NCBI GenBank assembly: GCA_046485285.1
Contig: JAWOHE010000070.1
Span: forward strand, 1 to 16,082
Direction of reading: 5' to 3'
DNA length: 16,082 nt
From: a bacterium
Lineage (GTDB): Bacteria; Hydrothermota; Tepidihabitantia; Tepidihabitantales; Tepidihabitantaceae
How positions within the stretch are numbered: position 1 is the stretch's first letter; the number at the start of each line of letters is the position of its first letter. Shown here piece by piece: positions 1 to 15,266 of the stretch. The position numbers and the translations under genes are program-made. The notes below the pieces were generated by a model. That model worked only from the letters and a program-made list of their open reading frames with translations. It ran no database searches and was not told where the DNA came from.

Positions 1-59
1 ACTACAAGTACAACTACAGCTACGCGCACCGGACCCCGTCGGGCGAGATAAAGAAGTAG
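1..59 (+). CDS. 3' end of an upstream gene with a Tyr-rich C-terminal tail (possibly a BY-kinase of the Wzc/CpsD type); partial
   Basis: Frame 3 reads YKYNYSYAHRTPSGEIKK then TAG (57-59) with high-GC3 codons. A C-terminal Tyr cluster is typical of bacterial tyrosine autokinases, but only 18 codons are visible. Confidence 0.35.
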   Translation, partial: YKYNYSYAHRTPSGEIKK

Positions 60-208
60 GTCGGTAACCGGGTCGGGCCGGTCAGCTCCGGTCAGCCGGC
101 CCCGGACCCCGGGGAGGAGGATTCCGGCCGTCCGGGGCAGGACCGGTTCGACCTGCGTTCGGGTTGCCCGGGCGCCCTGCAGGCGGGGCGCAGGACAAAG
201 GAGGTAAC

Positions 209-490
209 GTGTACCTGGTCGGACTGACGCAGTTGCTCGTGCCGGTGTTCGGCGCCGCGTTGATCGCGGCCGCGGTCGAGGGACTCAAGGCCGAGTGGCA
301 CGCCCTGTTCAAGCGGCCGATGCCGGGCGCGCTCGCGCGCATCGTCGTCTACCTGCTGGCAATCGCACTTCAGGTCTACAACTGGTATGCTCACAACGTG
401 CCGGCCTGGCAGGTCCCGGTGATGGCCGTCGCGACCGCGCTCGGCGCGATTGGCTTCTACCGCTTCGCGAAGCGGCCGAAGACCGCCTGA
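209..490 (+). CDS. Small multi-pass membrane protein (93 aa), holin-like
   Basis: GTG at 209 follows a strong RBS (AAAGGAGGT, 197-205) and is in frame with track ORF 164..490. It has about 3 hydrophobic segments and a basic C-terminus (RFAKRPKTA). Confidence 0.75.
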   Translation: MYLVGLTQLLVPVFGAALIAAAVEGLKAEWHALFKRPMPGALARIVVYLLAIALQVYNWYAHNVPAWQVPVMAVATALGAIGFYRFAKRPKTA

Positions 491-540
491 CGCCGGGGCG
501 GCGCGAGGGCCGCGAGGGCCGGACCACCACCTCGCCCCAA

Positions 541-565
541 CCCTCTCCCCCAGAGGCAGAGAGGG
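541..565. repeat. REP-like hairpin CCCTCTC...GAGAGGG
   Basis: CCCTCTC (541-547) is the reverse complement of GAGAGGG (559-565). It lies in the convergent intergenic region. Confidence 0.45.
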
Positions 566-671
566 GGAGCGTCCCGGACGGGCAGGATTCAACACGAAGG
601 CACGAAAGGGTGATGTGTGTGAGGACAAGGGCGCGGACTGGGGGCTAAGACACAAAGAACGGCACGAGGAC

Positions 672-734
672 TGAGCGATGAATGCCGAATCCTGCACTCT
701 GAACCTTGAACTATGGACTTTGAACCGTGAACTG
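672..734 (+). repeat. Degenerate heptamer tandem repeat (TGAACNN)x9
   Basis: tgagcga tgaatgc cgaatcc tgcactc tgaacct tgaacta tggactt tgaaccg tgaactg. Confidence 0.8.
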
Positions 735-754
735 CGTCCCGCACGGGCCGGAAA

Positions 755-783
755 GGGATTTCTCGACTGCGCTCGAAATGACA
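755..783. repeat. REP-like element GGGATTTCTCGACTGCGCTCGAAATGACA
   Basis: Imperfect palindrome (TCGA...TCGA, ATTTC...GAAAT). Its first part, GGGATTTCTC, recurs at 802-811. Confidence 0.4.
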
Positions 784-956
784 GCGGGCGCGGACAGGAG
801 AGGGATTTCTCCACGCGAAACCGAAGAAACACCAAGACCCAAAGAAGGAGGGTTCCGATATCCGGACCCCGGGACCCTGTTCTTCTTGGTGCCTTGGTGG
901 TTGGTCCTGTCCGGCCTCGGCGGCCGTTGGTCGAAACAACGGGTGGGGGCGAGGAC

Positions 957-1026
957 TGAACGCTGACCGATCAACTTTGAACCATGAACGTTGAACCTTG
1001 AACGCTGAACGCTGAACTTCGAACTG
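957..1026 (+). repeat. Degenerate heptamer tandem repeat (TGAACNN)x10
   Basis: tgaacgc tgaccga tcaactt tgaacca tgaacgt tgaacct tgaacgc tgaacgc tgaactt cgaactg. Confidence 0.85.
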
Positions 1027-1048
1027 CGGTCCGGCCCGCGGTCGCGGG

Positions 1049-2866
1049 TCAGGTCTCGCGGTAGTGTGAGGCCTGGGCCAGGTACATCCGGGCGTAGAGC
1101 TCGCCGAGCTCGAGCAGTTCATGGTGCGTTCCCTGTTCCCGGATCCGCCCCTTGTCGAGCACGTAGATGTAGTCGGCGAGCTGGACCGTTGAGAACCGGT
1201 GGCTGACGAGGACCGCGCTCCGGCCGTCGAGAACCCCGCGGAACTGCTCGAATAGTTCGGCCTCGGCAAGCGGGTCGAGCGCGCTGGTCGGCTCGTCGAG
1301 CACGACGAGCTGGGAGCGGCGCATGAACGCCCGGGCCAGCGCGACCTTCTGCCACTCGCCGATGCTCAGCTCGAGGCCGGACTCGAACCAGCGGCCGAGC
1401 GGCGTGTCGTAACCCTGGGGCAGGCGGCTTATTGCCGCGTCGGCCCCGGCGCGCTTCGCGGCCGCGACGATCCTCGCCCGGTCCGGCTCGGCCGCCGCGT
1501 CGCCGAGCCAGATGTTCTCCCAGGCCGGGAGCTGGTACTGGACGAAGTCCTGAAGGATGACGCTGACCTCCCGGCGCCAGCGGGCCGGCTCGAGCCGGCG
1601 GATGTCGATGCCGTCGACGGTGATCTGGCCGGTGCCGGGGTCGTAGAGCCGGCAGAGGAGCTTGACGAGCGTCGTCTTGCCCGAGCCGTTCGCGCCGACC
1701 AGCGCAACGACCTGGCCCGGGGCAATCGCCAGGCTGACCGCGTCGAGCGCCGGCCGGGAACTGCCCGGGTAGGCGAAGCTGACGCCTTCGAACGCGATGC
1801 CCCGCGCGAACCGTGCCGGGACCGGGAGCGGCTTCGCCGGCGCGGTGACCCTCGGCTGGAGGTCGAGGAACTCGTAGAAGTTGGCGAGGAAGAGGTTGTC
1901 CTCGTAGAGCCCGGCGAGGCCGGCGAGGATGGCCGAGAGCGAGTTGGCCGCGAGCTGGAAGGCCGAGTAGTACATCACCAGGCTGCCGATGGTGATCGTC
2001 CCCCGCCAGGTCTGCCAGGCGATGTAGACGAGCGTGCCGAAGGTGGCGACCGTCACCGCGGCCTGGGCGAGCAGGCCGGCCGCGCTGCGGCGCCGGGCCA
2101 GTACCAGCCTCGCCCGGCGCAGTTGCCGGCGGAGTTCGCGGTAGCGCTGGCGGAAGAGCGCGCCGATGTCGAAGAGCCGGAGTTCCTTGGCCGGGAACGA
2201 GTTCGTCAGCAGCCAGTGGTAGTACCAGGCCCGGCGTTCCTTCTCGGTCTGCTCACGCTCGAAACGGTAGAGCCGGCGCGCGTGGACCATCCGGACGACC
2301 GCGCCGGGCAGGGCGACGACGACGAGCACGAGGGCGACCAGCGGGCTGAGCGCGAAGAGCAGGCCGGCGATGCCGGCCAGCGAGACCGCGCCCCGGCCGA
2401 CCTGGACCAGCCGGTTGACGATGTTGACCGGCCGGTGCATCGCGTCACCCTGGGCCCGGTGGAGGGTGTCGTGGTAGCGGGGGTCCTCGTAGTAGCCGAG
2501 GTCCATCGCGACCGACTGGCCGTGGACGATGTCGGTCACCTTGTCGGACAGCACGAGCGACTGGGCCTGGCCGACGAGCTCGGCCAGCGAGTGCGCGATG
2601 GCGGTGAGGAGCGCCGCGGCCGCGGCAACGCCGACCCAGACGAGCACGCGCTGGAAGCCGGCCGGTCCGCTGCCGGCCGCGATGCCGGCCTGCAGCAGGT
2701 CGACGACCTGCTTGATGGCGTAGAGCCCGGCCAGCGGCAGGAGCCCCTGGACCGCGACGAGGGCCGCGTTGGCGACCGCGAGCCCGGGCGCGCTGGCCCA
2801 GACGAGGCGGACCGCCCGGTCGAGGCGCAGGCCCTTCCGGACCGGGTCCTTCGGCCTCGCGCTCAC
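1049..2866 (-). CDS. ABC exporter, fused permease/ATP-binding protein (probable RiPP exporter, no C39 peptidase domain)
   Basis: 605 aa. N-terminal transmembrane domain, Walker A GANGSGKTT, signature variant LSIGEWQ, Walker B/D-loop VVLDEPTSALD and H-loop SHR. GTGA overlap with the upstream gene. Confidence 0.95.
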   Translation of the reverse strand: MSARPKDPVRKGLRLDRAVRLVWASAPGLAVANAALVAVQGLLPLAGLYAIKQVVDLLQAGIAAGSGPAGFQRVLVWVGVAAAAALLTAIAHSLAELVGQAQSLVLSDKVTDIVHGQSVAMDLGYYEDPRYHDTLHRAQGDAMHRPVNIVNRLVQVGRGAVSLAGIAGLLFALSPLVALVLVVVALPGAVVRMVHARRLYRFEREQTEKERRAWYYHWLLTNSFPAKELRLFDIGALFRQRYRELRRQLRRARLVLARRRSAAGLLAQAAVTVATFGTLVYIAWQTWRGTITIGSLVMYYSAFQLAANSLSAILAGLAGLYEDNLFLANFYEFLDLQPRVTAPAKPLPVPARFARGIAFEGVSFAYPGSSRPALDAVSLAIAPGQVVALVGANGSGKTTLVKLLCRLYDPGTGQITVDGIDIRRLEPARWRREVSVILQDFVQYQLPAWENIWLGDAAAEPDRARIVAAAKRAGADAAISRLPQGYDTPLGRWFESGLELSIGEWQKVALARAFMRRSQLVVLDEPTSALDPLAEAELFEQFRGVLDGRSAVLVSHRFSTVQLADYIYVLDKGRIREQGTHHELLELGELYARMYLAQASHYRET

Positions 2867-4077
2867 GGCCTGCCCGTCCTGAGCCAGCGGACCAGCAGGT
2901 CTTCCCGGCCGCGCCGGGGGTTGTCGACCATCAGCCGGGCCTGGAGCCGGGCGTGAAGCCAGCCTGCCCGGATGCCGTCGCGGAGCCGCAGGGCATAGAA
3001 GCGGTAGAGATGACGTGCGGTACGGGATGCCGGGTACTTCACGGCCATCGCGTCACGAGAGAGGAAGACATGCTTCCAGACCAGCCTTACCAGGCCGCCA
3101 AGCGACCCGGCGCCCCGGCGGCCGGCGAGCGACCCGGGCGGGCGGTAGTCGGACCGGGCGAGAACGGTCTCGCGCGCGACCTCCAGGACGCGGGGCTCGA
3201 TACCGCCCGGCACGAGCTGTTCGAAGACGTCGCCCGGGACTTCGGCCCCGAGCAGGTCGCGGGCAAGGCCGAGCACGAGGCCCGTGTATCGCGTCGCGCC
3301 CCACTCGCGGGCCCGGCGCGCGAACCGTGGCCAGTCCAACTCGCCGCGGAAGCGGTGAACGGTCTCGGCGACGTCGCAGAGGACGTACGGCACCGCGAGG
3401 CCGTGACGATGGCTGAGATGCAGGCACAGGTGCAGGAGCAAGTCCTCTGGCGAGAGCGCGAGCACCTCGACGCCAGCTATCGCGGCCGGACGGGCCCGGT
3501 CCCAGAGCCCGGCAGCGGCCACTCTGAATGGCCCGGTCGGGCGTTCGATGGCCCAGTGAAGGTCAACGGCGAGGTCGCGAATGAAGAGCGTCGGGAGGCT
3601 GGCGTTCCTGCGGCAGTGTCGCTTGATGTCGACCGGGCGCGCGGAGGCACCGCCAGCGGCGAGCAGGACCGCCCGGGCTCTCGGCAGGTCGGCCTTCCGG
3701 ACCATCAGGTCGGCATCGCTCATCGGCCGGAGTGCGGCGTCGCCGTAGACCGCCTCCGCGAGGAACGCTCCCTTGAGCACGATGACCGGAATGCCGGTAT
3801 CGCGCAGGCCGGCGAGCACCGGCCGAAGGCGACGGTAGAAGCGGGTGTTCCTGCCGGCGCTGTCAAGGTAGGCCAGTCGCAGGCGCTCCCAGGCACCGGC
3901 CGGGACCCGGTCCCGCGCCGAGCCCTGCTTCAGGCGCCTGAAGAGCAGGGGCGCGAGGCGGAGGTGGGCGGCCGCGGCGACGAGGCCGTTCCAGTCGGCG
4001 GCCGGCTCAGAGCCGTCGAACAGGTGACGGAGCAACAGGCTGACCGGCCGGGTGTCGACGGCCGAGCGAGCGTTCAA
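2863..4077 (-). CDS. Nucleotidyltransferase family protein (NTP_transf_5-like)
   Basis: Motifs IPVIVLKG, LRPMSDADL (DxD), VDLHW and LSPEDLLLHLCLH. Paralog of 13936..15195. The TTG start overlaps the upstream stop (TTGA). Confidence 0.88.
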   Translation of the reverse strand: MNARSAVDTRPVSLLLRHLFDGSEPAADWNGLVAAAAHLRLAPLLFRRLKQGSARDRVPAGAWERLRLAYLDSAGRNTRFYRRLRPVLAGLRDTGIPVIVLKGAFLAEAVYGDAALRPMSDADLMVRKADLPRARAVLLAAGGASARPVDIKRHCRRNASLPTLFIRDLAVDLHWAIERPTGPFRVAAAGLWDRARPAAIAGVEVLALSPEDLLLHLCLHLSHRHGLAVPYVLCDVAETVHRFRGELDWPRFARRAREWGATRYTGLVLGLARDLLGAEVPGDVFEQLVPGGIEPRVLEVARETVLARSDYRPPGSLAGRRGAGSLGGLVRLVWKHVFLSRDAMAVKYPASRTARHLYRFYALRLRDGIRAGWLHARLQARLMVDNPRRGREDLLVRWLRTGRP

Positions 4078-5648
4078 TCCCGCGCTTCGCTGCCGGAGGC
4101 GAGACTGATAACGGCCTGCCTGAGGGTCTGCTCAGCCACGAACAGGTGGAACGGCGGCCGAATGTACCACCGCCTGAGCCGAAAGTCGTAGTGCCCGACC
4201 ACCTGCCCGCCCATCAGCAGTTTGAGGAACGCCCGGTAGCGGTTGCCGAAGCGCACCGGCCTGGGCCGGAGCCGTCGCGGGAGAAGGCGGTCGAACGGGC
4301 CGAGACCGGCAACAGCGCGGTACAGCGTGTGAGGGAGACGGCCCGCGCTTCTCCGGATGCCCCGGCCCAGGCGCACGCAGCGAAGGACAAGGAGACCTCG
4401 CCACCCGCCGTGGACAACCCGGCGCTTGTCTCCGCGCTGGGCGGCGATCACGCGGCCGGTGATGCTGTCGGCCGGCAGGACCCAGGTGTCATCTTCCCGG
4501 TTGTTGTCGCCGCGGGTGCGCAGGCCGCCCTGCGCATGGCCGGGGACCGGGGACCGGCGACTGACCGAGACTAAGCGGTGCACGACCGTCTTGCCGGTCT
4601 CGGGCGACCTGAAGCAGACGACGTCGCCCGGGCGCACCCGGGCCGGACCGTACGGCCTGACTTCGAGAAGGTCGGGCTCGTCGAGGGTGGGAAGCATGCT
4701 GGTGCCCGTGCAGACCACGCGCAACGCGTCGTCAGCCGTAAGCGAGTCGACCGACACCGGGTCCGGCCGGGGGGCGTCCACACAGGGACCGGGCAAGTCG
4801 CCGACGGGCAGGACCCGCTCGATTTCCTCCCAGAACCTGCCCTCGAGGCTGAACTTCAGCGACCAGGCCGGGATGGCCGCGGCAAGCCCCCGGGCAGTCC
4901 TCAGCGCCTCGATGCAGAGCCGGTGGATGACGTCGACGTCGTTCAGGACGAACAGCACTTCCCGGGCGAGTTCCTCCGCGGACTCCATCGCCAGGGCGGT
5001 CACCCGCGTACCGTGGAGCGGCTCGAGTCGGTCAAACGGCGACTGGTCGAGGAAGAAGAGCGCCCGGAGCGGAACGGCGCGCTCTACGGCCCAAGAGCCG
5101 CCCGGGCCACCATAGAGGAAACGGCTCCAGGTCGGCCAGGGGTGAGCCCAGAAACGGCCCCTGCCGTCGGGCACGACCAGCGTCATGTCGTCGGACAGCG
5201 AGCGCCAGGGCGCGGGCAGGCGGCGGCTGGCAGTGCTCTTGCCGACCTCGGCCGGCCCGCCCATTATGAAACCGCTCCCCCGGTACTCGGCCAGCGCGCC
5301 GTGGAACAGCATCCCGCCCCGGGCCAGGGTCTCGCGGGCAATGAAGGATGCGATTCGCCGCAGTTGGGCAACCCGGGTCTCCTTGTCTGTCGGCGGGGCA
5401 ATCCGACACGCGGCTGCGCCGGGCGTCTCCGGTCCCGTTCGGTCGGACTCACCGGACACGGCGACACACAACTCGCGCCCGGCCTCGCCCGGCCTGCCCG
5501 ACCGGCAGACTGAGCCCAACTGCATTACTCTGCCCAGTTCGGCCACGATCTCCGTGGCCTGGTCATCGGCCGGCCGAATGAGCCACCGCTGGCCATCGGC
5601 CAAGGCAAGTCTCAGCCCAAACAGCAAATACGATGGAGGTGCTGGCAT
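4074..5648 (-). CDS. scmC: ScmC-like HPr-kinase-type P-loop domain fused to a C-terminal S24/S26 (signal peptidase I-like) peptidase
   Basis: N-terminal half has FHGALAE, GPAEVGKST, LSDD and HPWPTWS. C-terminal half has GTSMLP (Ser codon 4698-4700), GDVVCF, VVHRL (His codon 4578-4580) and TRGDNN. Confidence 0.82.
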   Translation of the reverse strand: MPAPPSYLLFGLRLALADGQRWLIRPADDQATEIVAELGRVMQLGSVCRSGRPGEAGRELCVAVSGESDRTGPETPGAAACRIAPPTDKETRVAQLRRIASFIARETLARGGMLFHGALAEYRGSGFIMGGPAEVGKSTASRRLPAPWRSLSDDMTLVVPDGRGRFWAHPWPTWSRFLYGGPGGSWAVERAVPLRALFFLDQSPFDRLEPLHGTRVTALAMESAEELAREVLFVLNDVDVIHRLCIEALRTARGLAAAIPAWSLKFSLEGRFWEEIERVLPVGDLPGPCVDAPRPDPVSVDSLTADDALRVVCTGTSMLPTLDEPDLLEVRPYGPARVRPGDVVCFRSPETGKTVVHRLVSVSRRSPVPGHAQGGLRTRGDNNREDDTWVLPADSITGRVIAAQRGDKRRVVHGGWRGLLVLRCVRLGRGIRRSAGRLPHTLYRAVAGLGPFDRLLPRRLRPRPVRFGNRYRAFLKLLMGGQVVGHYDFRLRRWYIRPPFHLFVAEQTLRQAVISLASGSEARD

Positions 5649-5753
5649 CTTGTCCGGCTAGGCGCTCGCGCTACACATCACGACAGCTTCTCCGCTACCG
5701 ACCGCAAGCCACCTGCTACGGAATCAGTTGTCTGCCGCTACCGACTCAACGGT

Positions 5754-5768
5754 GGGGCGGGCCGCCCC
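5754..5768 (-). terminator. Short GC hairpin downstream of precursor 1
   Basis: GGGGCG-ggc-CGCCCC, 12 nt beyond the stop codon. There is no U-tract, so it may stabilise the transcript rather than terminate it. Confidence 0.3.
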
Positions 5769-5780
5769 TCGCGCCGCTAC

Positions 5781-5960
5781 CTAGAAGTTCTGTACGTTAG
5801 AACCGGCCAGGCAGCGGTTCTGGCCCAGAACGCCGAATCCGCTGGCGCATACGTCCTCATTGCCCTCAGGCCCGTCGCCGCACGAAAACGTGCCGGTCGT
5901 GGCATCACTCAGGCGGACGGCGCACGGCGCCGTGTACTTCAGGTCGTCAGACTGGCTCAT
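5781..5960 (-). CDS. RiPP precursor peptide 1 (59 aa, ScmA-like, 3x CxxG); not in the ORF track
   Basis: Manual translation: MSQSDDLKYTAPCAVRLSDATTGTFSCGDGPEGNEDVCASGFGVLGQNRCLAGSNVQNF*. RBS GGAGGT (5966-5971) is 5 nt before the ATG. It has its own promoter and aligns without gaps to precursor 2. Confidence 0.9.
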   Translation of the reverse strand: MSQSDDLKYTAPCAVRLSDATTGTFSCGDGPEGNEDVCASGFGVLGQNRCLAGSNVQNF

Positions 5961-6001
5961 CAGATACCTCCGTGGCGTTGGTTTTGCATCTGCCTGAATT
6001 C

Positions 6002-6030
6002 ATTGTACCCCCCCCCGGCCCTGCTGTCAA
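6002..6030 (-). promoter_or_regulatory. Sigma70-type promoter of precursor 1: TTGACA-17-TACAAT with G9 in the spacer
   Basis: -35 at 6025-6030, -10 at 6002-6007, spacer 6008-6024. Near-consensus in high-GC DNA and conserved upstream of precursor 2. Confidence 0.8.
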
Positions 6031-6078
6031 GAAAAACGGTGGGCCTTCCCCGTCCTCGGATTCACTGCCCGCGACGCT

Positions 6079-6376
6079 TCAATTCCCGGTCCTGCGCTGC
6101 GCCCGGGCAGGGGGAAACAGCCCGCGGCGGACCGCCTCGGCGCACAGAGGGCGGGGCGCAACCAGTTGTCCGCTCTGGACATGGTTGTCGGCCACACAGC
6201 CGGTCCGGCAAACCCGGGCGAATATGCACCGCGCGCAGATGCCCGGGAAGCTGTCCGGGTCGGCCAGGGCCCGGCGTAGACGGAGAACCGTCGGGTTGTT
6301 CAGCCAGATGTCGCGCACGCTGTCTTTGCCCGGTTGCCCGCATGCCACCTCGGGGCAGGTGGAGCCGATGCCGCAC
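6079..6376 (-). pseudogene. Duplicated 3' fragment of the scmF-like gene (SPASM region)
   Basis: 6095-6376 matches 7045-7326 at offset 950 with 10 mismatches in 282 bp by manual count. It lacks the radical SAM core and any clear start. Confidence 0.9.
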
Positions 6377-6394
6377 CGCGTTCCGCGGCCAGGC

Positions 6395-6548
6395 GCCCGA
6401 CCGGCAGACGGGGTCCAACTGCAGGATTGCGCCCAGCTCGGCGGCAAGCGCCGCGGCCCTGTCGTCAGCCGGCCGCAACGAGCCGCCGCTGGCCATCGGC
6501 GAGGACGAGTCTCAGGCCGCGGGATGGATGAGAGGGGCGTGCTGACAT
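6395..6548 (-). pseudogene. Frameshifted 5' remnant of a scmC-like gene
   Basis: From ATG 6548 it reads MSARPSHPSRGLRLVLADGQRRLV, then after a 1-nt insertion RPADDRAAALAAELGAILQLDPVCRSG. This matches the N-terminus of 4074..5648 (GLRLALADGQRWLIRPADDQATEIVAELGRVMQLGSVCRSG), about 73% nt identity by manual count. Confidence 0.85.
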
Positions 6549-6650
6549 CGGAGTCGACGCTGCACCTGCGTCAAACGACAAACCGGCCAGTTCGCCACTG
6601 GCCGGATACCATTCGCTACCTAATCAGTTGTCTTCTTCTGCCGGTGCAAC

Positions 6651-6678
6651 CGCGACGCGGCCGGGCATTCGCGTCGCG
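6651..6678 (-). terminator. 9-bp GC stem-loop immediately after the precursor 2 stop codon
   Basis: CGCGACGCG (6651-6659) pairs with CGCGTCGCG (6670-6678) around a 10-nt loop. No clear U-tract. Confidence 0.5.
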
Positions 6679-6855
6679 CTAGTTCTGGACGGTGGAGCCG
6701 GTGTTGCAGATGTTGATCTGCTGGACCGCGAACCCGCTCTCGCACAGGTCGGCGTTGCCATTGCGGCCGTTCGTGCACGCGAACGTGCCGGTCTGGGCAT
6801 CGCTCAGACGCACGGCACACGGAGCCATATATGTCGAATTGTCGGACTTCACCAC
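6679..6855 (-). CDS. RiPP precursor peptide 2 (58 aa, ScmA-like, 3x CxxG)
   Basis: Likely start is GTG at 6855, 5 nt after GGAGGT (6861-6866), inside track ORF 6679..6981. Sequence: MVKSDNSTYMAPCAVRLSDAQTGTFACTNGRNGNADLCESGFAVQQINICNTGSTVQN*. It is 35/58 identical to precursor 1. Confidence 0.9.
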   Translation of the reverse strand: MVKSDNSTYMAPCAVRLSDAQTGTFACTNGRNGNADLCESGFAVQQINICNTGSTVQN

Positions 6856-6952
6856 TTCATACCTCCGATTCGCGGACTCCGCGAGAGCCCGCTCATTTTT
6901 GTCTAAAACGAACTGCTGCCAACTGGCGACCCTGTGCCAGTTGAACTGAGAC

Positions 6953-6981
6953 ATAATACCCCCCCCGGCGTCTGCTGTCAA
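6953..6981 (-). promoter_or_regulatory. Sigma70-type promoter of precursor 2: TTGACA-17-TATTAT with G8 in the spacer
   Basis: -35 at 6976-6981 (overlapping the scmF stop codon), -10 at 6953-6958. Confidence 0.78.
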
Positions 6982-8186
6982 GAGATACCTTCCTCGCCAC
7001 CGACCCGGGCTCCAGAGTCAACGCCGCCCGGGCTACCGGCCCGCCGCTGCGCCCGGGCAGGGGGAAAGAGCCCGCGGCGGACCGCCTCGGCGCACAGGGG
7101 ACGGGGCGCAACCAGTTGTCCGCTCTGGACATAGTTGTCGGCCACGCAGCCGGTCCGGCAAACCCGGGCGAATATGCACCGCGCGCAGATGCCCGGGAAG
7201 CTGTCCGGGTCGGCCAGGGCCCGGCGCAGACGGAGAACCGTCGGGTTGTTCAGCCAGATGTCGCGCACGCTGTCTTTGCCCAGTTGCCCGTATGTCAACT
7301 CGGGGCAGGTGGAGCCGATGCCGCACAGGGCGTACCGGTTCGTGCCGAGAATGCCCAGAATCCCGAGCACGCCGCAGTCACCGCAGGAACCGCCCGAGCG
7401 TCCCAGACGGCGGCGCGACGACAGGGCCGGGGGTATGTTGAGGATGACACCAACCGGCGCGCGCGGATGCAGATCCTCGTCAACGTAGCGCGCCAGCTCC
7501 ATCGTCTCGTCGAAGTCCAGGGCCTCGCCGCGCTCGTGCATCGTGATTCCGCGGCCGGTCCGGGTCACCGGGTTGAGCTTTACCGATGCCGCGCCGCGTT
7601 CCGCGGCCAGGAGCACGACCGGCTCGACCTGCGCGCGGTTCCCGCGGTGCACGCTCATGATGACCTGCGTGTTCTTGAACCCCGCATCCGCCAGGTGGGA
7701 AAGCCCTTTCAGGGCCGCGTCGAACGCGCCCTTGACGTTCCGAAAGGCGTCGTGGGTCCGGGCATCCGACCCGTCCAGGCTGACAGAAACAAAGGTGACC
7801 CGCGTCTTGTCCTTGAGGTGACGGGCGGTCTCGGCGGTCAGCAGGGTGCCGTTTGTCTCCATGAGGAGGCTCAGTCCCTCAGCGGTCAGCAGGTCGACGA
7901 CCTCCAGGAACCGGGGATGGAGCATCGGCTCGCCGCCGGTCAGCTTGGCCGAGCCCAGGCCTAGCGTCTTGCCTTCGCGCACCGCCTCGCGCAGGGAGTC
8001 CACGTCCACGCAGTCACCCGGGTCAGGCTTCCCGTCAATGAACCGGGGCACGATCCAGCAGTGACGGCAGCGCAGGTTGCAGCCGCTGGACAGGTAGATG
8101 TAGAACGAGCGCAGGGGGGGTACGCCCTCGGGCAGGTCAGGCGGCGGTGCCGGCGTCACGGGCGCGTCGGCCGGCTCACTCGGCAT
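6978..8186 (-). CDS. scmF: Radical SAM/SPASM peptide maturase, ScmF-like
   Basis: CNLRCRHCWI (CxxxCxxC), LTGGEP and ETNG. SPASM cysteines in CGVLGILGILG...ALCGIG...CARC...C...C...C. Position in the cassette fits. Confidence 0.85.
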   Translation of the reverse strand: MPSEPADAPVTPAPPPDLPEGVPPLRSFYIYLSSGCNLRCRHCWIVPRFIDGKPDPGDCVDVDSLREAVREGKTLGLGSAKLTGGEPMLHPRFLEVVDLLTAEGLSLLMETNGTLLTAETARHLKDKTRVTFVSVSLDGSDARTHDAFRNVKGAFDAALKGLSHLADAGFKNTQVIMSVHRGNRAQVEPVVLLAAERGAASVKLNPVTRTGRGITMHERGEALDFDETMELARYVDEDLHPRAPVGVILNIPPALSSRRRLGRSGGSCGDCGVLGILGILGTNRYALCGIGSTCPELTYGQLGKDSVRDIWLNNPTVLRLRRALADPDSFPGICARCIFARVCRTGCVADNYVQSGQLVAPRPLCAEAVRRGLFPPARAQRRAGSPGGVDSGARVGGEEGIS

Positions 8187-9321
8187 CTGGAGCCTCCTCG
8201 CCCTTGAAGATTCGATAGCAGACCAGCGGGTCGCGCGCGTTCAGCCTGCCGTACCGGGCCGCCACCGTCGCCGGGCAGCCGCCGGTGCAGAAGCCGGCAT
8301 AGCGGCAGTCCCGGCACTCGGGCAGGAACGAGAGCGGGATGTCGCGGCGGTAGCGCAAGGCGTTTATCGCCGGGCTCGAGCGCCAGGCCTCGGACAGGGA
8401 GTGCAGGCCGACGACGCCCATCACCAGCTTCGGCAGCAGGGAGCAGGGCACCATCGTGCCGTCGTGCAGTACCGCCATGTTCGAGAAGACGCAGCCACAG
8501 GCAGAGAGCGTGCCTCGTCCGGGCAGGCTGTCCCGGCCGTGCGCGAGCGAGTCCTCAATCACGGCGAAGCGCCGGGCCAGGTCCAGCGGGCCGGCCGAAG
8601 CGTTTATCCGGCCGTTGTACTTCTCGTTCAGCCTGGTCAGCGATGCCATCGCACGCCGGCGGTCGGCAGGGGTGAGGACAACGCTGCTGCCATCGCAGCG
8701 CGCCGAGCCCATTTGCGCGACCTCGTTGGTGCTGAAGCCCGCGAGCCCGACGTCCTCGAAGAGCAGGCGGGCGATGTTCTCGATGTCGTCGAGGTTGGCC
8801 CGGTTCACGGTGACGCGCACGGTCATCGGGAACCCGGCGCCCTTGAGCAGTCGCAGGCCGGCGAGCGCCCGGTCAAAGCTCTTCGGGGGACGGCTCCGGT
8901 CGTGGATTTCGGCCCGCGACCCGTCAATCGAGACCTGGATCGAATCCAGGCGCAGGCGGCGCTTGCCGACTGCGAAGGCCCGCAACGTGTCCTCGCTGAT
9001 GAGCGTGCCGTTGGTCAGTATCGAGTAGCGCATCCGATTGGCTATGATGCCGTCAATCAACTCGAAGAGGTCCTGCCGCATGAAGGTCTCGCCCCCAGAG
9101 AGTGACACGCGCTGGACCCCGAGCCGGCCCGCCTCCTCGAACAGGCCGTGCCAGCGCGCGGCCGGCATGTCGCTCAACGCCGCCATCTCGTCGGCGTAGA
9201 AGCAGTAGCGGCACTTGAGGTTACAGCGCCCGGTGATGGAGAGGTTCAACTGCCGCGGGGCGCGCGGCAGGCCGGGCGGCGGCACGGTCAGGTCAGGGAC
9301 CGGCGGGGCTTCAGTGCTCAT
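8176..9321 (-). CDS. scmE: Radical SAM/SPASM peptide maturase, ScmE-like
   Basis: ITGRCNLKCRYCF, LSGGE and LTNG. SPASM motifs CGC...DGTMVPC...CRDC...CTGGC...C. Confidence 0.85.
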   Translation of the reverse strand: MSTEAPPVPDLTVPPPGLPRAPRQLNLSITGRCNLKCRYCFYADEMAALSDMPAARWHGLFEEAGRLGVQRVSLSGGETFMRQDLFELIDGIIANRMRYSILTNGTLISEDTLRAFAVGKRRLRLDSIQVSIDGSRAEIHDRSRPPKSFDRALAGLRLLKGAGFPMTVRVTVNRANLDDIENIARLLFEDVGLAGFSTNEVAQMGSARCDGSSVVLTPADRRRAMASLTRLNEKYNGRINASAGPLDLARRFAVIEDSLAHGRDSLPGRGTLSACGCVFSNMAVLHDGTMVPCSLLPKLVMGVVGLHSLSEAWRSSPAINALRYRRDIPLSFLPECRDCRYAGFCTGGCPATVAARYGRLNARDPLVCYRIFKGEEAPDAE

Positions 9322-9595
9322 CAGGCGAGGCGATGATGAAGTCAGGAGTCAGCGACTGGATAAACTTCTCCGCGTCCTGCGCGGCCTGTTCCGGCGTCAC
9401 GTCCGGGTAGGTGGCCGCAACGTGGCCGGCAATCTCGGCAAGGGTCCGGGGCGCGGCGAGCAATGCCCAGATGGCACGGCCCGTGCGGTTGAGCAGGACG
9501 GTGTTGTCCTTGTCCGGGTTGTAGAGCATCGCCCCGTCCTCGCCCTCGTCGACGCAGGAGACAACGTCGCTCGCGCGGTAGGTTTTTTCGCTCAT
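9311..9595 (-). CDS. PqqD family RiPP recognition element (RRE)
   Basis: 94 aa. LYNPD...LLNRTGRAIWALL...TLAEI...Y...DAEKFIQSL is the PqqD-fold pattern. Confidence 0.88.
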   Translation of the reverse strand: MSEKTYRASDVVSCVDEGEDGAMLYNPDKDNTVLLNRTGRAIWALLAAPRTLAEIAGHVAATYPDVTPEQAAQDAEKFIQSLTPDFIIASPDEH

Positions 9596-9891
9596 CAGGC
9601 AGTATCCTCCAGCAGCACTTCTTGTCCGACAAAGCCCTCCTCGACCAGCTTCAACAGCAGGGCGCGGACGTCCTCGGCCACAGTGTCCGGCGCGTCCGGG
9701 AAGCGGCCGCGGATTTCGGCGACAATCTCCCCGGTCGTGCGCCAGCCGTCAACCAGGTTCCAGACCAGCGCCCCGGTGTGGTTCACGGCCATCGCGCCCG
9801 CGGTGTCCGGGTTCACCAGCAGGGTCCAGCCGTCAGCGCCTTCTTCCCGCACCACTGCCGGGTTGGCTATCGGCCGGTCCGGAACTGTCAT
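9595..9891 (-). CDS. scmD: PqqD family RRE, ScmD-like
   Basis: 98 aa. PIANPAVVREE...LVNPDT...VNHTGALVWNLVDG...DVRALLLKLVEEGFV. Confidence 0.85.
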   Translation of the reverse strand: MTVPDRPIANPAVVREEGADGWTLLVNPDTAGAMAVNHTGALVWNLVDGWRTTGEIVAEIRGRFPDAPDTVAEDVRALLLKLVEEGFVGQEVLLEDTA

Positions 9892-9896
9892 CCCGC

Positions 9897-9925
9897 ATTA
9901 TGCCGAAAAAATACGGTCCGGGCAA
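9897..9925 (-). promoter_or_regulatory. Candidate promoter for the left operon, TTGCCC-17-CATAAT (possibly a leaderless transcript)
   Basis: -35 at 9920-9925, -10 at 9897-9902, only 5 nt before the scmD ATG at 9891. No Shine-Dalgarno sequence. Confidence 0.5.
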
Positions 9926-10056
9926 GAGCGAGTAGCAGGTGGGAGGGAAGAGGGAATTGAGGTCGAGCCGGATGCCGCAGTCGCACATCCCTCCCGGAAT
10001 GGCCTCGTCTACCCCGGCGGCGCGGACCCGGGGCCCGGCTCCGGCCGAGAACCGGC

Positions 10057-10084
10057 TTGACAGCCAAGCCCGTCGACATACAAT
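10057..10084 (+). promoter_or_regulatory. Sigma70-type promoter of precursor 3 and the right operon: TTGACA-16-TACAAT
   Basis: TTGACA at 10057-10062, TACAAT at 10079-10084. Confidence 0.72.
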
Positions 10085-10162
10085 GTTGTCCGGCTATTTG
10101 GAGAATACCGTTATGTTCGATGACAGGCTTTTCGACCACGGAGCAGGCCCGGAGGAGGAGTG

Positions 10163-10342
10163 ATGGATGATCGAGACCGCAAGACCTGGCAGACGCCGAA
10201 GCTCAAGGTCCTCGCGAGGGTGAGGTCAGAGGAGAGAGTCTTGGAGGCCTGTAAGACCCCCATCAAGAACGGCCCGTCCGCAGCCGTGGCTTGCTACAAA
10301 GGCTCCTCGGGACAGGAGTGCGAAGTGATAGCCAATTCGTAG
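10163..10342 (+). CDS. RiPP precursor peptide 3 (59-60 aa; WxxPxL leader, 3 Cys, C-terminal Ser)
   Basis: MDDRDRKTWQTPKLKVLARVRSEERVLEACKTPIKNGPSAAVACYKGSSGQECEVIANS*. RBS GGAGGAGG at 10151-10158, alternative GTG start at 10160. First gene of the radical SAM operon. Confidence 0.85.
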   Translation: MDDRDRKTWQTPKLKVLARVRSEERVLEACKTPIKNGPSAAVACYKGSSGQECEVIANS

Positions 10343-10505
10343 CGGATCCTGCGACGTCAACACAAGCGGGAGCCTAGTCAGCAGAACCATCCTGACAGCC
10401 ATCTGCGATTCGACCGGCTGAAAAGGAGCCGTCTGCGGGTGGAGAGGCTGAATCCCCTGCCCGTTTCCTTGCCTGCCTCTTGTTCGCCGGTAGGGGCATC
10501 CTGAC

Positions 10506-11501
10506 ATGACGGATGACGCCCGGCTTGACCGCGTCCTTCCCGGCCCGCCGGCACCGGACCCGCGGAAGCCGGGGGCCCACCACCGCCTGTTCGGAATCGG
10601 TGGCATCACCATCCGGGTCGAGTCCGACCTGCCCTTCACCGACCGGACCTTCGACCCCAAGTTCCAGCAGTTCGAGCTCGACGGCCCGGGCCCTGACACG
10701 GTCACCATCCGCCACCACTTCGAACTGCCGGCAGTCGACCCCGACACCCTCGGCCGCGAGGTCTATCGCAAGCCGCCCTGGTCAATCTACCGCCGCGACA
10801 GTTGCTGGGTCTACCTCGGCGTCCTGCCCGAGGAGCTCGGCTCCGGCCTGTTCAAGGTCGCGGTCTTCAACGACGACCACTCGCTCGGCGACCTGTACCA
10901 CCCGGGCGACGGCGAGTTCCGCGAAGGCGGGCTCCACTCACTCACGATGTTCCCGACCGACCAGATTCTCCTCACGCCCCTGCTCGCCGACCGGCAGGCC
11001 TGCTTCCTCCACTCCGCCGGCGCAATCCTGAACCGCCAGGGCCTGCTCTTCGTCGGCCATTCCGAAGCCGGCAAGTCCACCACCCTGAAACTCATCAAGG
11101 ACCGGGCCGAAATCCTCTGCGACGACCGCAACATCGTCAGGCGAGAGACAGGCGAAGCCGGCAGTGCCGGGTGCGGGCACTCGCGTGGAACGCGAATCCG
11201 GGTCTACGGGACCTGGAGCCACGGCGAACTGCCTCAGGTCTCCCCGGCCTCGGCGCCGCTACGGGCAATCCTGTTCCTCGAGAAGTCCGGCGAGAACAGC
11301 CTGGCCCTGCTCGATGACCGCAGTGACATCCTCGGCCGCCTGCTCGGCTGTGTGATTCGGTCGCTGGAGACCCAGGGCTGGTGGCAGAAGACCCTCGGCG
11401 TGGTCGAGGCGCTCTGCCGCGAGGTCCCCTGCTACCTGATGCGGTTCGACAAGAGCGGACAAATCCTTGAACAGCTCGAGGCGCTGACGGAAGTCCGATG
11501 A
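10506..11501 (+). CDS. HPr-kinase-like P-loop protein (putative peptide kinase, ScmC/PadeK-related)
   Basis: FLHSAGA, Walker A GHSEAGKST, LCDD and YGTWSHG. Confidence 0.8.
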   Translation: MTDDARLDRVLPGPPAPDPRKPGAHHRLFGIGGITIRVESDLPFTDRTFDPKFQQFELDGPGPDTVTIRHHFELPAVDPDTLGREVYRKPPWSIYRRDSCWVYLGVLPEELGSGLFKVAVFNDDHSLGDLYHPGDGEFREGGLHSLTMFPTDQILLTPLLADRQACFLHSAGAILNRQGLLFVGHSEAGKSTTLKLIKDRAEILCDDRNIVRRETGEAGSAGCGHSRGTRIRVYGTWSHGELPQVSPASAPLRAILFLEKSGENSLALLDDRSDILGRLLGCVIRSLETQGWWQKTLGVVEALCREVPCYLMRFDKSGQILEQLEALTEVR

Positions 11502-12706
11502 CCGATGACCGACGACCGGTCTCCCCTGCCGCCTCTCGCTACGTCGAGCGGGTCCGGGACGACCAGCCCGAGCGCTGGCTGAAGCACCGGCCCCTGCTCG
11601 AGCGGTTCGACATCGAGCTGACCGAACGCTGCAACAACAACTGCATCCACTGCTACATCAACCTGCCGATGGCCAACCGCGCGGCCCGCGAGCGCGAGAT
11701 GCCTGCCGACAGGGTCAAGGCCATCCTGACCGAGGCCGCGGGCCTCGGCTGTGTGGCGGTGCGCTTCACCGGCGGCGAGCCGCTCCTGCGCGAGGACTTC
11801 GAAGACCTTTACCTCTTCGCCCGCCGGCTCGGGATGAAGGTGTCGCTCGCGACCAACGCCCGGCTCATCACGCCCGGTCTCGCCGACCTCTTCGCGCGGG
11901 TCCCTCCCCGGGAGCCGGTCGAGGTCACCGTCTACGGGATGAGGGCGGACTCCTGCGACGCCGTCACCCGCGTTCCGGGCTCGCACGCCGAGGCCCGGCG
12001 CGGCATTGAGCTGCTCACCGCCCGCGGGGTCCCGGTTGTCATCAAGGGCGCGGTCCTGCCACCGAACCTCGGTGAGTTGGACGAGATCGAGACCTGGACC
12101 GCCTCGCTTCCCGCGGTGGAACAGCCGCCGGCCTTCACGATGTTCTTTGACCTGCGCGGCCGTCGGGACTCGGACGCCCGGAACCGCCGGATTGCCGGAC
12201 TGCGCGTCTCGCCCGAGGCCGGCGTCGCCCTGCTGAACCGGCACCGCGAGCGCTACCTCGGCGATATGCGCCAGTTCTGCGCGAAGTTCATCGGCCCGCC
12301 CGGCGACCGACTGTTCACCTGCGGCGCCGGTCACGGGACCTGTGTCGACGCGTACGGCAGGGCGCAGGCCTGCCTCCTGCTCCGCCACCCGGCGACGGTC
12401 TACGACCTCGCGAACGGCACGCTCAGGGAGGCTCTCACCGTCTTCTTCCCGCGCTTGCGGGAGATGAAGGCCGCGAACCCGGACTACCTCGCCCGCTGTG
12501 CCCGCTGTTTTCTCAGGGGCCTGTGCGAGCAGTGCCCGGCCAAGTCTTGGGGCGAGCACGGCACCCTCGACACGCCGGTCGAGTACCTCTGCGAGGTCGC
12601 CCACGCCCAGGCGCGCGACCTCGGCCTGCTCGCGGAAGGCGAACAGGCCTGGGAAGTGACCGACTGGCGCGGCCGGGTCGAGAGGCTGAAGACCGATGAG
12701 GATTGA
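11498..12706 (+). CDS. Radical SAM/SPASM peptide maturase
   Basis: ELTERCNNNCIHC, FTGGEP and ATNA. SPASM motifs CGAG...AC...CARC...CEQCPA...YLC. Confidence 0.92.
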   Translation: MTDDRRPVSPAASRYVERVRDDQPERWLKHRPLLERFDIELTERCNNNCIHCYINLPMANRAAREREMPADRVKAILTEAAGLGCVAVRFTGGEPLLREDFEDLYLFARRLGMKVSLATNARLITPGLADLFARVPPREPVEVTVYGMRADSCDAVTRVPGSHAEARRGIELLTARGVPVVIKGAVLPPNLGELDEIETWTASLPAVEQPPAFTMFFDLRGRRDSDARNRRIAGLRVSPEAGVALLNRHRERYLGDMRQFCAKFIGPPGDRLFTCGAGHGTCVDAYGRAQACLLLRHPATVYDLANGTLREALTVFFPRLREMKAANPDYLARCARCFLRGLCEQCPAKSWGEHGTLDTPVEYLCEVAHAQARDLGLLAEGEQAWEVTDWRGRVERLKTDED

Positions 12707-13904
12707 CGGAGGACCGAAGACCGAAGACGGGCAGCCGGTCCCCGATCCCCGGTCGCCGGTCCCCGGTCATCCTTCTTCCGCCTACTCCTCATTGGTCCCT
12801 CTCCCCGGCTTCGAACTCTGGGACCGGATGAAGCAAAGGCACGCGCCGCTGGCCTTCGACATCGAGGTCACCGCCCGATGCAACAACGACTGCCGCCACT
12901 GCTACATCAACCTGCCGGCCGGCGACCCGGCCGCCCGGGCCGCCGAGCTCACGCCGGCCGAAATCGAGCGCATCGCCCGCGAGGCGGCGGGGATGGGCGC
13001 GCTGTGGTGCCTGCTGACCGGCGGCGAGCCGCTCCTGCGCGACGACTTCCCCGAGGTCTACCTCGGGCTGAAACGACTCGGGCTCCTCGTTTCGGTCTTC
13101 ACCAATGCCTGCCTGGTCAGACCCGAACACGTCGAGCTGTTCCGGAAGTACCCGCCGCGCGAACTCGAAGTCTCGGTCTACGGCGCAACCGAGGCGACCT
13201 ACGAACGGGTGACGCGCCGGCCCGGGTCGTTCCGCGCCTTCCGCCGCGGCCTCGACCTGCTGCTCGCCGGCGGCGTCAAGGTCCAGCTCAAGGCGATGGC
13301 CCTGCGCTCGAACGTCCACGAGTTCGCGGAGATCGGCCGCTTTTGCCGGGCGCGGACCGCGGACGACTACCGCTTCGACCCGCTCCTGCACCTGCGCTTT
13401 GACCGCGACGAGGCGCGCAACGCGGAAATCCGCGCCGAGCGGCTCTCGCCGGCCGAGGTCGCGGCGGTCGAGCGCGCGGACGCGGAACGGTTCGGGACGC
13501 TCAAAGAACACTGCAGCCAGCTCATCCTGCGCGAAGCCGCACGCGCGACCGGCAATCACCTGTTCCAGTGCGGCACGGGCCGGGACAGCTTCAGCGTCAG
13601 CTTCGACGGTCGGCTCCGGCTCTGCTCGTCGCTCTGGCACCCGGACACGGTCTATGACCTGCGCCGCGGTACGCTCGCCGACGCCTGGCACAACCACGTC
13701 CCCCGGGTGCGGGACCTGCGCTCGGACCGGCCGGACTTCCTCGCGCGCTGTCACGCCTGCCCGATTGCCAACCTCTGCCTCTGGTGCCCGGCCCACGCCT
13801 TCCTCGAAACCGGCGAGCTCGACGCCCCGGTCGACTACTTCTGCGAGGTCGCCCGCGCGCGGGTCGCCGGGCTAGGAGTAGTGGAACCGCCGGGCCAGGG
13901 CTGA
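12696..13904 (+). CDS. Radical SAM/SPASM peptide maturase (paralog of the preceding gene; start uncertain)
   Basis: EVTARCNNDCRHC, LTGGEP and FTNA. SPASM motifs CGTG...LC...CHAC...CLWCPA...YFC. The first ~25 aa derive from heptamer repeats; alternative ATG at 12828. Confidence 0.9.
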   Translation: MRIDGGPKTEDGQPVPDPRSPVPGHPSSAYSSLVPLPGFELWDRMKQRHAPLAFDIEVTARCNNDCRHCYINLPAGDPAARAAELTPAEIERIAREAAGMGALWCLLTGGEPLLRDDFPEVYLGLKRLGLLVSVFTNACLVRPEHVELFRKYPPRELEVSVYGATEATYERVTRRPGSFRAFRRGLDLLLAGGVKVQLKAMALRSNVHEFAEIGRFCRARTADDYRFDPLLHLRFDRDEARNAEIRAERLSPAEVAAVERADAERFGTLKEHCSQLILREAARATGNHLFQCGTGRDSFSVSFDGRLRLCSSLWHPDTVYDLRRGTLADAWHNHVPRVRDLRSDRPDFLARCHACPIANLCLWCPAHAFLETGELDAPVDYFCEVARARVAGLGVVEPPGQG

Positions 13905-13935
13905 GACAAAAGCAGGACCAGGGGCCGGGCCGGGT

Positions 13936-15195: not shown

Positions 15196-15266
15196 CTGCG
15201 GCGGCCGGTCAGGCACCTGCCGGCCGCCGCAGCCCTGGGCATCAGTCTTCTTCCGTCAGTCCCGCC

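Follow-up and report, generated by a model that had tools for sequence, protein, structure and literature searches.

Sactipeptides and ranthipeptides are ribosomally made peptides with post-translational modifications (RiPPs) carrying thioether bridges that are made by radical S-adenosylmethionine (rSAM) enzymes of the SPASM type, examples being subtilosin/AlbA, SkfB, PapB/freyrasin and CteB; freyrasin contains six Cys-x3-Asp rings. Lasso peptide leaders use a Y-x-x-P motif. The peptide motif of a further system, TIGR04340, is presumably an ACGX repeat, as its family name indicates. The SynChlorMet (SCM) cassette, consisting of ScmA (TIGR04252), ScmC (TIGR04249), ScmD (TIGR04248), ScmE (TIGR04250) and ScmF (TIGR04251), has been defined only bioinformatically. 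Literature searches with its name and its gene names turned up no paper on it, the matches listed for accessions and gene names being unrelated papers on single-cell software, and neither "Scm" nor "TIGR0425" occurs in the text of PMC10288494 or PMC10114670. Here a stretch of 16,082 nucleotides from a bacterium of the phylum Hydrothermota (GenBank assembly GCA_046485285.1, contig JAWOHE010000070.1, positions 1 to 16,082; referred to below as the window) was analyzed, with emphasis on two small minus-strand genes named A1 and A2. Sequence evidence supports their assignment as RiPP precursors of a variant SCM radical SAM cassette. With a probability of roughly 0.55, they are duplicated precursors whose leader would be bound by a RiPP recognition element (RRE) and whose repeated units would be made into thioether rings by ScmE and ScmF.

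The two genes and their putative expression signals are:

5781..5960, minus strand: precursor gene A1, 59 aa plus stop, ATG start
6679..6855, minus strand: precursor gene A2, 58 aa plus stop, first in-frame GTG start
6002..6030, minus strand: sigma-70-like promoter of A1 (TTGACA, 17 nt spacer, TACAAT; 11 of 12 matches), conserved in both repeat units
6953..6981, minus strand: sigma-70-like promoter of A2 (TTGACA, 17 nt spacer, TATTAT; 11 of 12 matches), overlapping the scmF stop
6583..6605, minus strand: terminator-like hairpin with T tract, 3' of A2 (9 pairs, 7 GC), a lone match to the consensus where shuffled sequences gave a mean of 0.9

Both genes were taken from the list of open reading frames (ORFs), and in each a GGAGG precedes the start by 6 nt. 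In a public gene call (P0019, 49 aa), A2 begins at an internal ATG, so that Tyr9 is lost. Based on the conserved Y-x-x-P motif and the upstream GGAGG, the GTG at 6855 is the better start. From these starts the two peptides aligned without gaps at 60% identity, with the leader residues Y9, A11-P12-C13-A14-V15-R16-L17-S18-D19-A20 and T22-G23-T24-F25 and the core residues C27..G30, C38-x-S40-G41, C50..G53, S54 and V56-Q57-N58 in common. The preliminary description had reported a shared Y-x-APCAVRLSDA-x-TGTF followed by three C-x-x-G motifs at identical positions, and every element that it listed was present in the ORFs and their alignment. A1 probably divides into a leader (M1-F25) and a core (S26-F59) with C27xxG, C38xSG and C50xxG. 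A promoter scan of the 1.7 kb from 5500 to 7200 found 3 sites, compared to a mean of 0.2 in shuffled sequences. Since A1 and A2 each have their own promoter and ribosome-binding site (RBS), both look expressible, and the two congeners that had been proposed are plausible. A scan of the window against Rfam found no family.

That the pair encodes RiPP precursors, as proposed earlier, is borne out by the SCM-type radical SAM cassette around it. This cassette was recognized by scanning 16 ORFs of the window against NCBIfam and Pfam:

6978..8186, minus strand: ScmF-like radical SAM/SPASM maturase (TIGR04251, 351.4 bits, E 6.5e-105; Pfam Radical_SAM)
8176..9321, minus strand: ScmE-like radical SAM/SPASM maturase (TIGR04250, 370.3 bits; Pfam Radical_SAM and SPASM)
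9311..9595, minus strand: second PqqD-family protein, probable RRE (Pfam PqqD 53.4 bits; ScmD model 32.2 bits; 130 homologues)
9595..9891, minus strand: ScmD-like PqqD-family protein, probable RRE (TIGR04248, 62.3 bits; Pfam PqqD 58 bits; 117 homologues)
4074..5648, minus strand: ScmC fused to an S26 (SEC11/archaeal-type) signal-peptidase domain (TIGR04249, 160.6 bits, residues 81-280; TIGR02228, 47.3 bits)
2863..4077, minus strand: NTP_transf_5 nucleotidyltransferase, possible tailoring enzyme (PF14907, 198 bits), also found in the related cluster L066
1049..2866, minus strand: ABC exporter, permease/ATPase (NCBIfam, Pfam)

The ScmE, ScmF, ScmD and ScmC models were the best NCBIfam matches for the corresponding neighbor genes, and ScmC, at 160.6 bits with a cut-off of 125 bits, was the sole cassette protein above its curated SCM threshold. 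Precursors were found in 12 of 12 genomes with an ScmF orthologue of at least 66% identity (the genome of the window and 11 relatives). Only one genome has precursors but no such orthologue, and its completeness is 74%. In 9 of the 11 relatives the distance from scmF to a precursor downstream of it on the same strand is under 400 bp; in the remaining 2 the precursor is found 3.5 and 8 kb from scmF on the same contig. The 16-kb locus L066 has two PqqD genes, two ScmC-S26 fusions, NTP_transf_5, a GT4 glycosyltransferase, an ABC exporter and three precursors.

The likeness of this locus to the SCM cassette lies in the best matches of the genes neighboring A1 and A2. To that cassette the window adds the ScmC-S26 fusion, the second PqqD protein, the NTP_transf_5 enzyme and the ABC exporter, and by its sequence it is a divergent variant. 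With sactipeptide and ranthipeptide systems it shares a Cys-rich core, repeated short Cys units, and an rSAM/SPASM maturase with an RRE beside a Cys-containing precursor. The StsB, AlbA and PapB models matched ScmE and ScmF weakly, far under their cut-offs, and SkfB was among the nearest solved structures. Unlike these systems, the window shows no Asp, Asn or Thr that is conserved as an acceptor at a set spacing from the Cys, the invariant partner being a Gly at +3 or +4. It also differs in having two maturases and two stand-alone PqqD proteins, and in being known from its genes alone.

Lasso systems with B1 (PqqD) chaperones (PMC8498205) resemble the window in their stand-alone, leader-binding PqqD proteins and in the combination of a P-loop ScmC/HprK-like protein with a nucleotidyltransferase. 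The window also has a Y-x-x-P motif like that of lasso leaders, although a lasso leader model matched few family members, and those weakly (see below). In the NCBIfam and Pfam scans of the 16 ORFs, neither a lasso Asn-synthetase-like cyclase nor a B2 transglutaminase-type protease was found. Unlike a lasso core, the core here consists of Cys/Gly repeats and is no macrolactam substrate, and its C-terminal residue is not Ser. The ACGX-repeat system has in common with the window short Cys-Gly repeats and an rSAM/SPASM enzyme, and TIGR04340 matched ScmE and ScmF with 67-68 bits. However, this is far under the 400-bit cut-off of that model, and the repeat of the window is a C-x-x-G unit of about 10 residues rather than a four-residue A-C-G-x.

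Neither A1 nor A2 matched an NCBIfam or Pfam family, and the neighbors in the protein atlas were unnamed clusters with no Pfam family. A homology search with the single A1 sequence returned only A1 itself and P0002, a protein from another metagenome with 80% identity to A1. By a profile hidden Markov model (HMM), A1 is a member of a larger precursor family. A six-frame search with an alignment profile matched 14 of the 272 genomes of the phylum, including that of the window and G092, whose weak match (E 0.006, two in-frame TGA codons) is probably spurious. The profile matched in 12 of the 43 genomes of the window's family and in 9 of the 11 of genus g10, often in several copies each. Twenty-nine distinct peptides were extracted; 27 are preceded by an RBS-like motif and 2 by none. 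Named records with family peptides, and likewise the PqqD homologues, carry the source name "candidate division WOR-3".

A 30-peptide profile was searched against 1.84 billion representative proteins, each standing for a cluster at 50% identity, and gave 615 matches at E<=1e-3, with 14 at E<=1e-10. Among the best 150 of the 615 matches, 146 were of at most 130 aa and 144 had the leader motif; the counts of family anatomy below rest on these 144 leader-bearing representatives unless stated otherwise. Of the four longer matches, P0003 (747 aa) and P0035 (319 aa) are repeat proteins of no relation, with a look-alike of the leader motif, and were discarded as false positives. The match pattern of P0005 (1145 aa) was like theirs. 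In P0142 (250 aa) a family-like leader and core are found at the C-terminal end. Scanning of the genome contigs with a degenerate leader pattern gave 28 loci, with family peptides in four (L048, L052, L054 and L066); the other 24 were rejected as chance matches. An A1-based scan of metagenome contigs gave 2 loci, neither with a family peptide or a match to the window.

The ScmA model had no significant match in the whole genome of the window, the best (E 0.046) being on another contig, and none in three genomes holding ScmF-like proteins of 39-41% identity. Among 42 family representatives, 8 had sub-threshold ScmA matches that begin at the Tyr of Y-E-x-P, the best reaching 29.8 bits (cut-off 35) over 45 of 49 model positions. 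Weak matches to the lasso leader model NF033521 were seen in 2 of the 42, at the same place as the ScmA matches. From these alignments the family looks like a broad superfamily around ScmA, extending beyond the curated model.

The family leader has the consensus (K/R)-P-K-Y-E-(P/A)-P-(R/Q/K)-A-(V/I)-R-L-(G/S/D)-D-x-x-x-[G/A]-x-G-x-C. The place of Cys13 of A1 and A2 is taken by R in 69, Q in 29, K in 15, S in 6, C in 5 and T in 5. The Cys of "APC" had been listed in the motif shared by A1 and A2; most relatives have Arg, Gln or Lys there. Being usually Arg in the family and situated within the leader, Cys13 is no conserved ring site. The first core Cys lies 9-10 residues past the leader Leu in 120 representatives, successive Cys are 9-12 residues apart in 459 of 501 intervals, and the tail past the last Cys is of 7-9 residues in 100 representatives. 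Three core Cys were counted in 22 representatives, four in 69, five in 26, six in 20, seven in 6 and eleven in 1. The number is odd in 55 and even in 89.

Gly follows at +3 for 456 of the 645 core Cys (127 +/- 10 in shuffled cores) and at +3 or +4 for 635 of them (226 +/- 12 in shuffled cores). In 27 peptides of relatives the corresponding numbers were 81 and 113 of 116 core Cys, and 2000 shuffles of these cores gave a mean of 20.9 Gly at +3 (standard deviation 4.0, maximum 33). The core unit is C-x-x-(x)-G-[S/N]-x-[A/V/P/D], with a period of about 10 residues and 3 to 7 repeats. First units read C-x-x-G-S-[G/S]-[D/A], middle units C-x-x-(x)-G-[N/S]-x-A, and last units C-x-x-G-[S/N]-x-[V/P] followed by 0-3 residues. 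Ser follows the Gly in 68% of first and 30% of last units, and Ser or Asn in 54% of middle units. As a rule, the last unit comes to its end 3-5 residues past the Gly. From this ending, and from the approximately one residue between the predicted cleavage site and the first Cys, a complete unit extends from the Cys to about Gly+3.

The preliminary description had treated the YxAP block as a conserved leader and the C-x-x-G units as the core scaffold, and had named a lack of C-x-x-G conservation among homologs as grounds for giving the scaffold up. The homologs were examined and the motif is the hallmark of the family, so the scaffold stands; the leader is likewise upheld by the 144 motif-bearing sequences and by the purifying selection on Y9-F25 described below. 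The triple C-x-x-G is present in A1 and A2 as claimed, but the family is modular, with no fixed triple. Likewise GSxVQN does occur in both peptides and is confined to their closest relatives.

By the repeat structure of the assembled contig, A1 and A2 are paralogues that arose from a tandem duplication of approximately 1 kb. The duplicated segment comprises the 3' end of scmF, the precursor and the 5' end of scmC. Direct repeats connect 6086-6376 to 7036-7326 (291 nt, 96% identity) and 5500-5618 to 6399-6518 (75-83% DNA identity). A1 and A2 each sit inside one copy of this tandem repeat of about 0.9-1 kb, so their likeness reflects homology and not chance. Two gene remnants lie between them:

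6395..6548, minus strand: scmC' remnant, 5' end of a duplicate scmC, with 24 codons in frame and then a frameshift
6082..6387, minus strand: scmF' remnant, 3' end of a duplicate scmF, corresponding to ScmF residues 284-385 (90% amino acid identity, tblastn), with the SPASM C-terminal Cys motif

From A2 to A1 the order is thus a frameshifted 5' piece of scmC joined to a 3' piece of scmF. In tblastn, 6548-6477 was 62.5% identical to ScmC residues 1-24, and the homology goes on in another frame. An ORF at 6079-6447 (122 aa) still covers the SPASM C-terminal Cys motif of the scmF' remnant.

A single scmF-precursor-scmC arrangement was found in 4 of 4 loci compared, namely those of genomes G027, G021 and G219 and the WOR-3 record L054, which carries the peptide of genome G003. 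The G027 locus is collinear with the window at 84-85% on either side of the additional 1 kb or so. Based on this collinearity and on the single-copy relatives, A2 holds the ancestral place beside scmF and A1 adjoins the intact scmC. A2 is 79% identical to the single precursor of G027, of which it is, as judged from these comparisons, the orthologue, while being a paralogue of A1.

Divergence between the two repeat copies was estimated from Nei-Gojobori counts of synonymous (dS) and nonsynonymous (dN) differences:

Leader block Y9-F25, A1 versus A2: 17 codons, dS 0.93, dN 0.084, dN/dS ~0.09
Core, A1 versus A2: 33 codons, dS 1.04, dN 0.44, dN/dS ~0.42
scmF' remnant versus scmF: 96 codons, dS 0.096, dN 0.029

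The leader values show that the reading frame has been under purifying selection in both copies, and the divergence of A1 from A2 (dS about 1) indicates that the duplication is old. Apart from their Cys and Gly, the two cores have drifted apart. At synonymous sites the scmF' remnant is about tenfold less diverged than A1 and A2, although it is within the same duplicated unit; gene conversion from scmF is suspected, being the simplest idea for this low divergence. A tree built from 20 short peptides has support on only 3 of its 17 inner branches, among them a clade of A1 and P0002 (98/100), and the tree places neither A2 relative to G027 nor the duplication relative to speciation. G003, from the same genus as the window, has a very different 5-Cys precursor and flanks about 77% identical to the window. 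In G027, from another genus, the closest A2 orthologue was found, with flanks 84-85% identical. This contrast points to cassette transfer across lineages, or to noise in the binning.

The ScmC-S26 fusion is probably the leader peptidase, as far as its sequence tells. In 3 of 3 fusions the SM, HR and GDN boxes and the GKST P-loop are invariant; we take SM to hold the catalytic Ser and HR the His, and assume a catalytic role for the GDN box as well. The S26 domain matched SEC11C (E 2.3e-9), and its TIGR02228 score of 47.3 bits is slightly below the cut-off of 51.85. At the presumed cleavage site, [G/A]-x-G, position -3 is Gly or Ala in 86 of 88 and position -1 is Gly in 78 of 88 sequences. Kinship of ScmC to HPr kinase is only a lead: the ScmC paralogue of the second cassette in the window, described below, matched HprK_rel_B with E 1.2e-4 and 21 bits (cut-off 200). 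An AlphaFold model of ScmC-S26, built from a 3-sequence alignment, had a mean predicted local distance difference test (pLDDT) score of 36.4 and was too poor for use. The three fusion copies (window 4074-5648, minus strand; L066 5545-7104 and 9951-11552) all have a conserved C-terminal tail of about 120 residues.

The following course of maturation is proposed. One or both of the PqqD-type RRE proteins would bind the Y-x-x-P-x-A-x-R-L leader as a strand and pass it on to ScmE and ScmF. In other RiPP classes, proteins of the PqqD type act as chaperones of the leader (PMC8498205). Each C-x-x-(x)-G-[S/N]-x-[A/V/P/D] unit would be processed on its own by ScmE or ScmF, and would most likely become a small thioether ring that closes between the Cys sulfur and a carbon of another residue of that unit, 3-7 positions downstream, giving three rings in a row in A1 and A2. 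An intra-unit, downstream ring is the most likely one because Cys and Gly are the sole invariant core residues, the number of Cys is often odd, the last unit is complete about three residues past its Gly, and there is almost nothing before the first Cys. The S26 domain of ScmC would remove the leader directly before the residue that precedes the first Cys. ScmC and the NTP_transf_5 enzyme may then add phosphate or sugar, by analogy with the pairs of HPr kinase and nucleotidyltransferase that tailor lasso systems such as paeninodin and pseudomycoidin (PMC8498205). Finally, the ABC transporter would export the two congeners. The thioether rings are a reasonable inference from the sequences and not a result. 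Still more tentatively, the family may represent an undescribed RiPP class, in which strings of 3 to 7 cassettes of about 10 residues (C-x-x-G-[S/N]-x-A) are each ringed by two radical SAM/SPASM enzymes guided by two RREs, possibly with a thioether from Cys-S to Gly-C-alpha or to a neighboring residue. Its leader would be removed by a signal-peptidase-type domain fused to a P-loop protein, phospho- or glyco-decoration would follow, and A1 and A2 would be a recently diversified three-ring pair from a local duplication.

Several observations weigh against the proposal that SCM-variant enzymes make these units into thioether rings. ScmE and ScmF, with 370.3 and 351.4 bits, are each under the 400-bit equivalog cut-off, and the two ScmD-like proteins (62.3 and 32.2 bits), both of which pass Pfam PqqD, are under the 100-bit cut-off of TIGR04248. 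A1 and A2 themselves have no match to ScmA (cut-off 35 bits) at E<=0.01. Their first unit lacks the Ser after Gly that is found in 68% of first units. At the presumed cleavage site both read G-T-F, with Phe where 78 of 88 relatives have Gly, which makes the boundary of leader and core less sure for this pair. Matches of ScmC to HprK chains, in the P-loop region, had E values of only 1.4-1.5. The family peptides are mutually related, so the counts are non-independent observations. Thioether formation, the acceptor atom and the way in which ScmE and ScmF divide their work are all inferred. Among solved enzymes the nearest were PqqE (C-C bond, E 2.6e-13), SkfB (thioether), BlsE and SuiB (9.1e-9); as these span C-C and C-S chemistry, enzyme similarity leaves the chemistry undecided and does not favor thioethers.

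The same precursors and cassette could therefore serve another chemistry of ScmE and ScmF, such as C-C or C-O cross-links, epimerisation or Cys conversion, with Cys-x-x-Gly as a recognition or turn element. PqqE and SuiB, both C-C bond formers, are consistent with this, and so are the NCBIfam matches of the ScmE-like protein after ScmE itself, which are of mixed chemistries (WgkB, 117 bits; StsB, 106.5 bits; heme b synthase AhbD; GeoRSP; then ScmF and PqqE); two different rSAM enzymes also suggest two different reactions. We regard it as rather unlikely, however, as near-invariance in the core is limited to the Cys and the Gly after it (635 of 645), and no aromatic residue, Lys or Glu is conserved in the units, which leaves little else for a radical enzyme to join. 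Rings of the lanthionine kind would arise if ScmC phosphorylated the Ser or Thr after the Gly, the phosphate were eliminated and the Cys of the unit were added to the dehydro residue, the rSAM enzymes doing a separate job. Ser is indeed commonest after the Gly, in the proportions given above, the GKST P-loop of ScmC is invariant, and in lasso systems homologues of HPr kinase phosphorylate RiPP precursors at Ser (PMC8498205). Yet the NCBIfam and Pfam scans found no lyase or cyclase domain in the window, a third of middle units have Asn in place of Ser, Pro or Arg follows the Gly in the first units of A1 and A2, and the kinship of ScmC to kinases is weak (the HprK matches above). Such a route is improbable.

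It is very improbable that the Cys stay free or oxidised, as metal ligands or disulfides of a secreted Cys/Gly-rich peptide that the rSAM enzymes modify at other places. Metals can be bound by Gly/Ser-rich peptides with Cys at regular spacing, and 89 of the 144 cores have an even number of Cys, but the odd number in the other 55, and the three in both A1 and A2, argue against a purely disulfide role. Neither the strict Gly at +3 or +4 nor a fixed unit of about 10 residues is expected for simple ligands, and these peptides always come with a linked pair of SPASM enzymes and a pair of RREs. Finally, the pair would be an artefact if the assembly had joined two strain variants of one locus or if the small ORFs were not genes. 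The contig does come from a genome bin of 102 contigs that is 88% complete, and the 291-nt stretch is 96% identical between the repeat units. Against this, the junction of an scmC 5' end to an scmF 3' end is absent from the single-copy loci, the scmC' remnant carries a frameshift and has diverged by 17-25%, each of the two ORFs comes with an RBS, a promoter and a leader under selection, and an A1-like peptide (80% identity) occurs in another metagenome. The odds of an artefact are slight.

The SCM cassette has so far been named in protein-family databases while remaining chemically blank. For it the window supplies a substrate logic, consisting of a leader motif of 9 residues whose spacing from the first Cys is fixed, a modular Cys-x-x-Gly unit that can be counted and a probable site for an S26-type leader peptidase. 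If each unit becomes a ring, the family (615 representatives) would offer a sizeable and unexplored supply of small polycyclic peptides, and two rSAM enzymes would here share a single repetitive substrate. The duplication, with its preserved remnants, shows how multi-precursor RiPP loci originate, the leader being held (dN/dS ~0.09) while the core is changing (~0.42).

In L066 the gene for the GT4 glycosyltransferase (957-2363, minus strand) is located between the ABC exporter and the PqqD genes, and the window is without one. Its presence there hints at glycosylation in some members of the family.

A second, divergent cassette is located on the plus strand of the window:

10057-10084, plus strand: sigma-70-like promoter of the candidate third precursor (11 of 12 matches)
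10163..10342, plus strand: candidate third precursor (59 aa from ATG), with a W-x-T-P-K-L leader-like motif, a C-Y-K-G-S unit and a strong RBS
10506-11501, plus strand: ScmC/HprK-like protein
11498-13904, plus strand: two rSAM enzymes
13936-15195, plus strand: NTP_transf_5

The candidate third precursor was not detected by the profile of the A1/A2 family, and it matched ScmA weakly, with 17.3 bits (E 0.004 when searched alone, 0.1 genome-wide).

The region 500-1048 is non-coding and is made up of short dispersed repeats, with matches at 47 places of the same genome. An 80-nt piece of it (587-666) recurs between scmC and the precursor in G027 (L004, 1290-1369, 88.8%).

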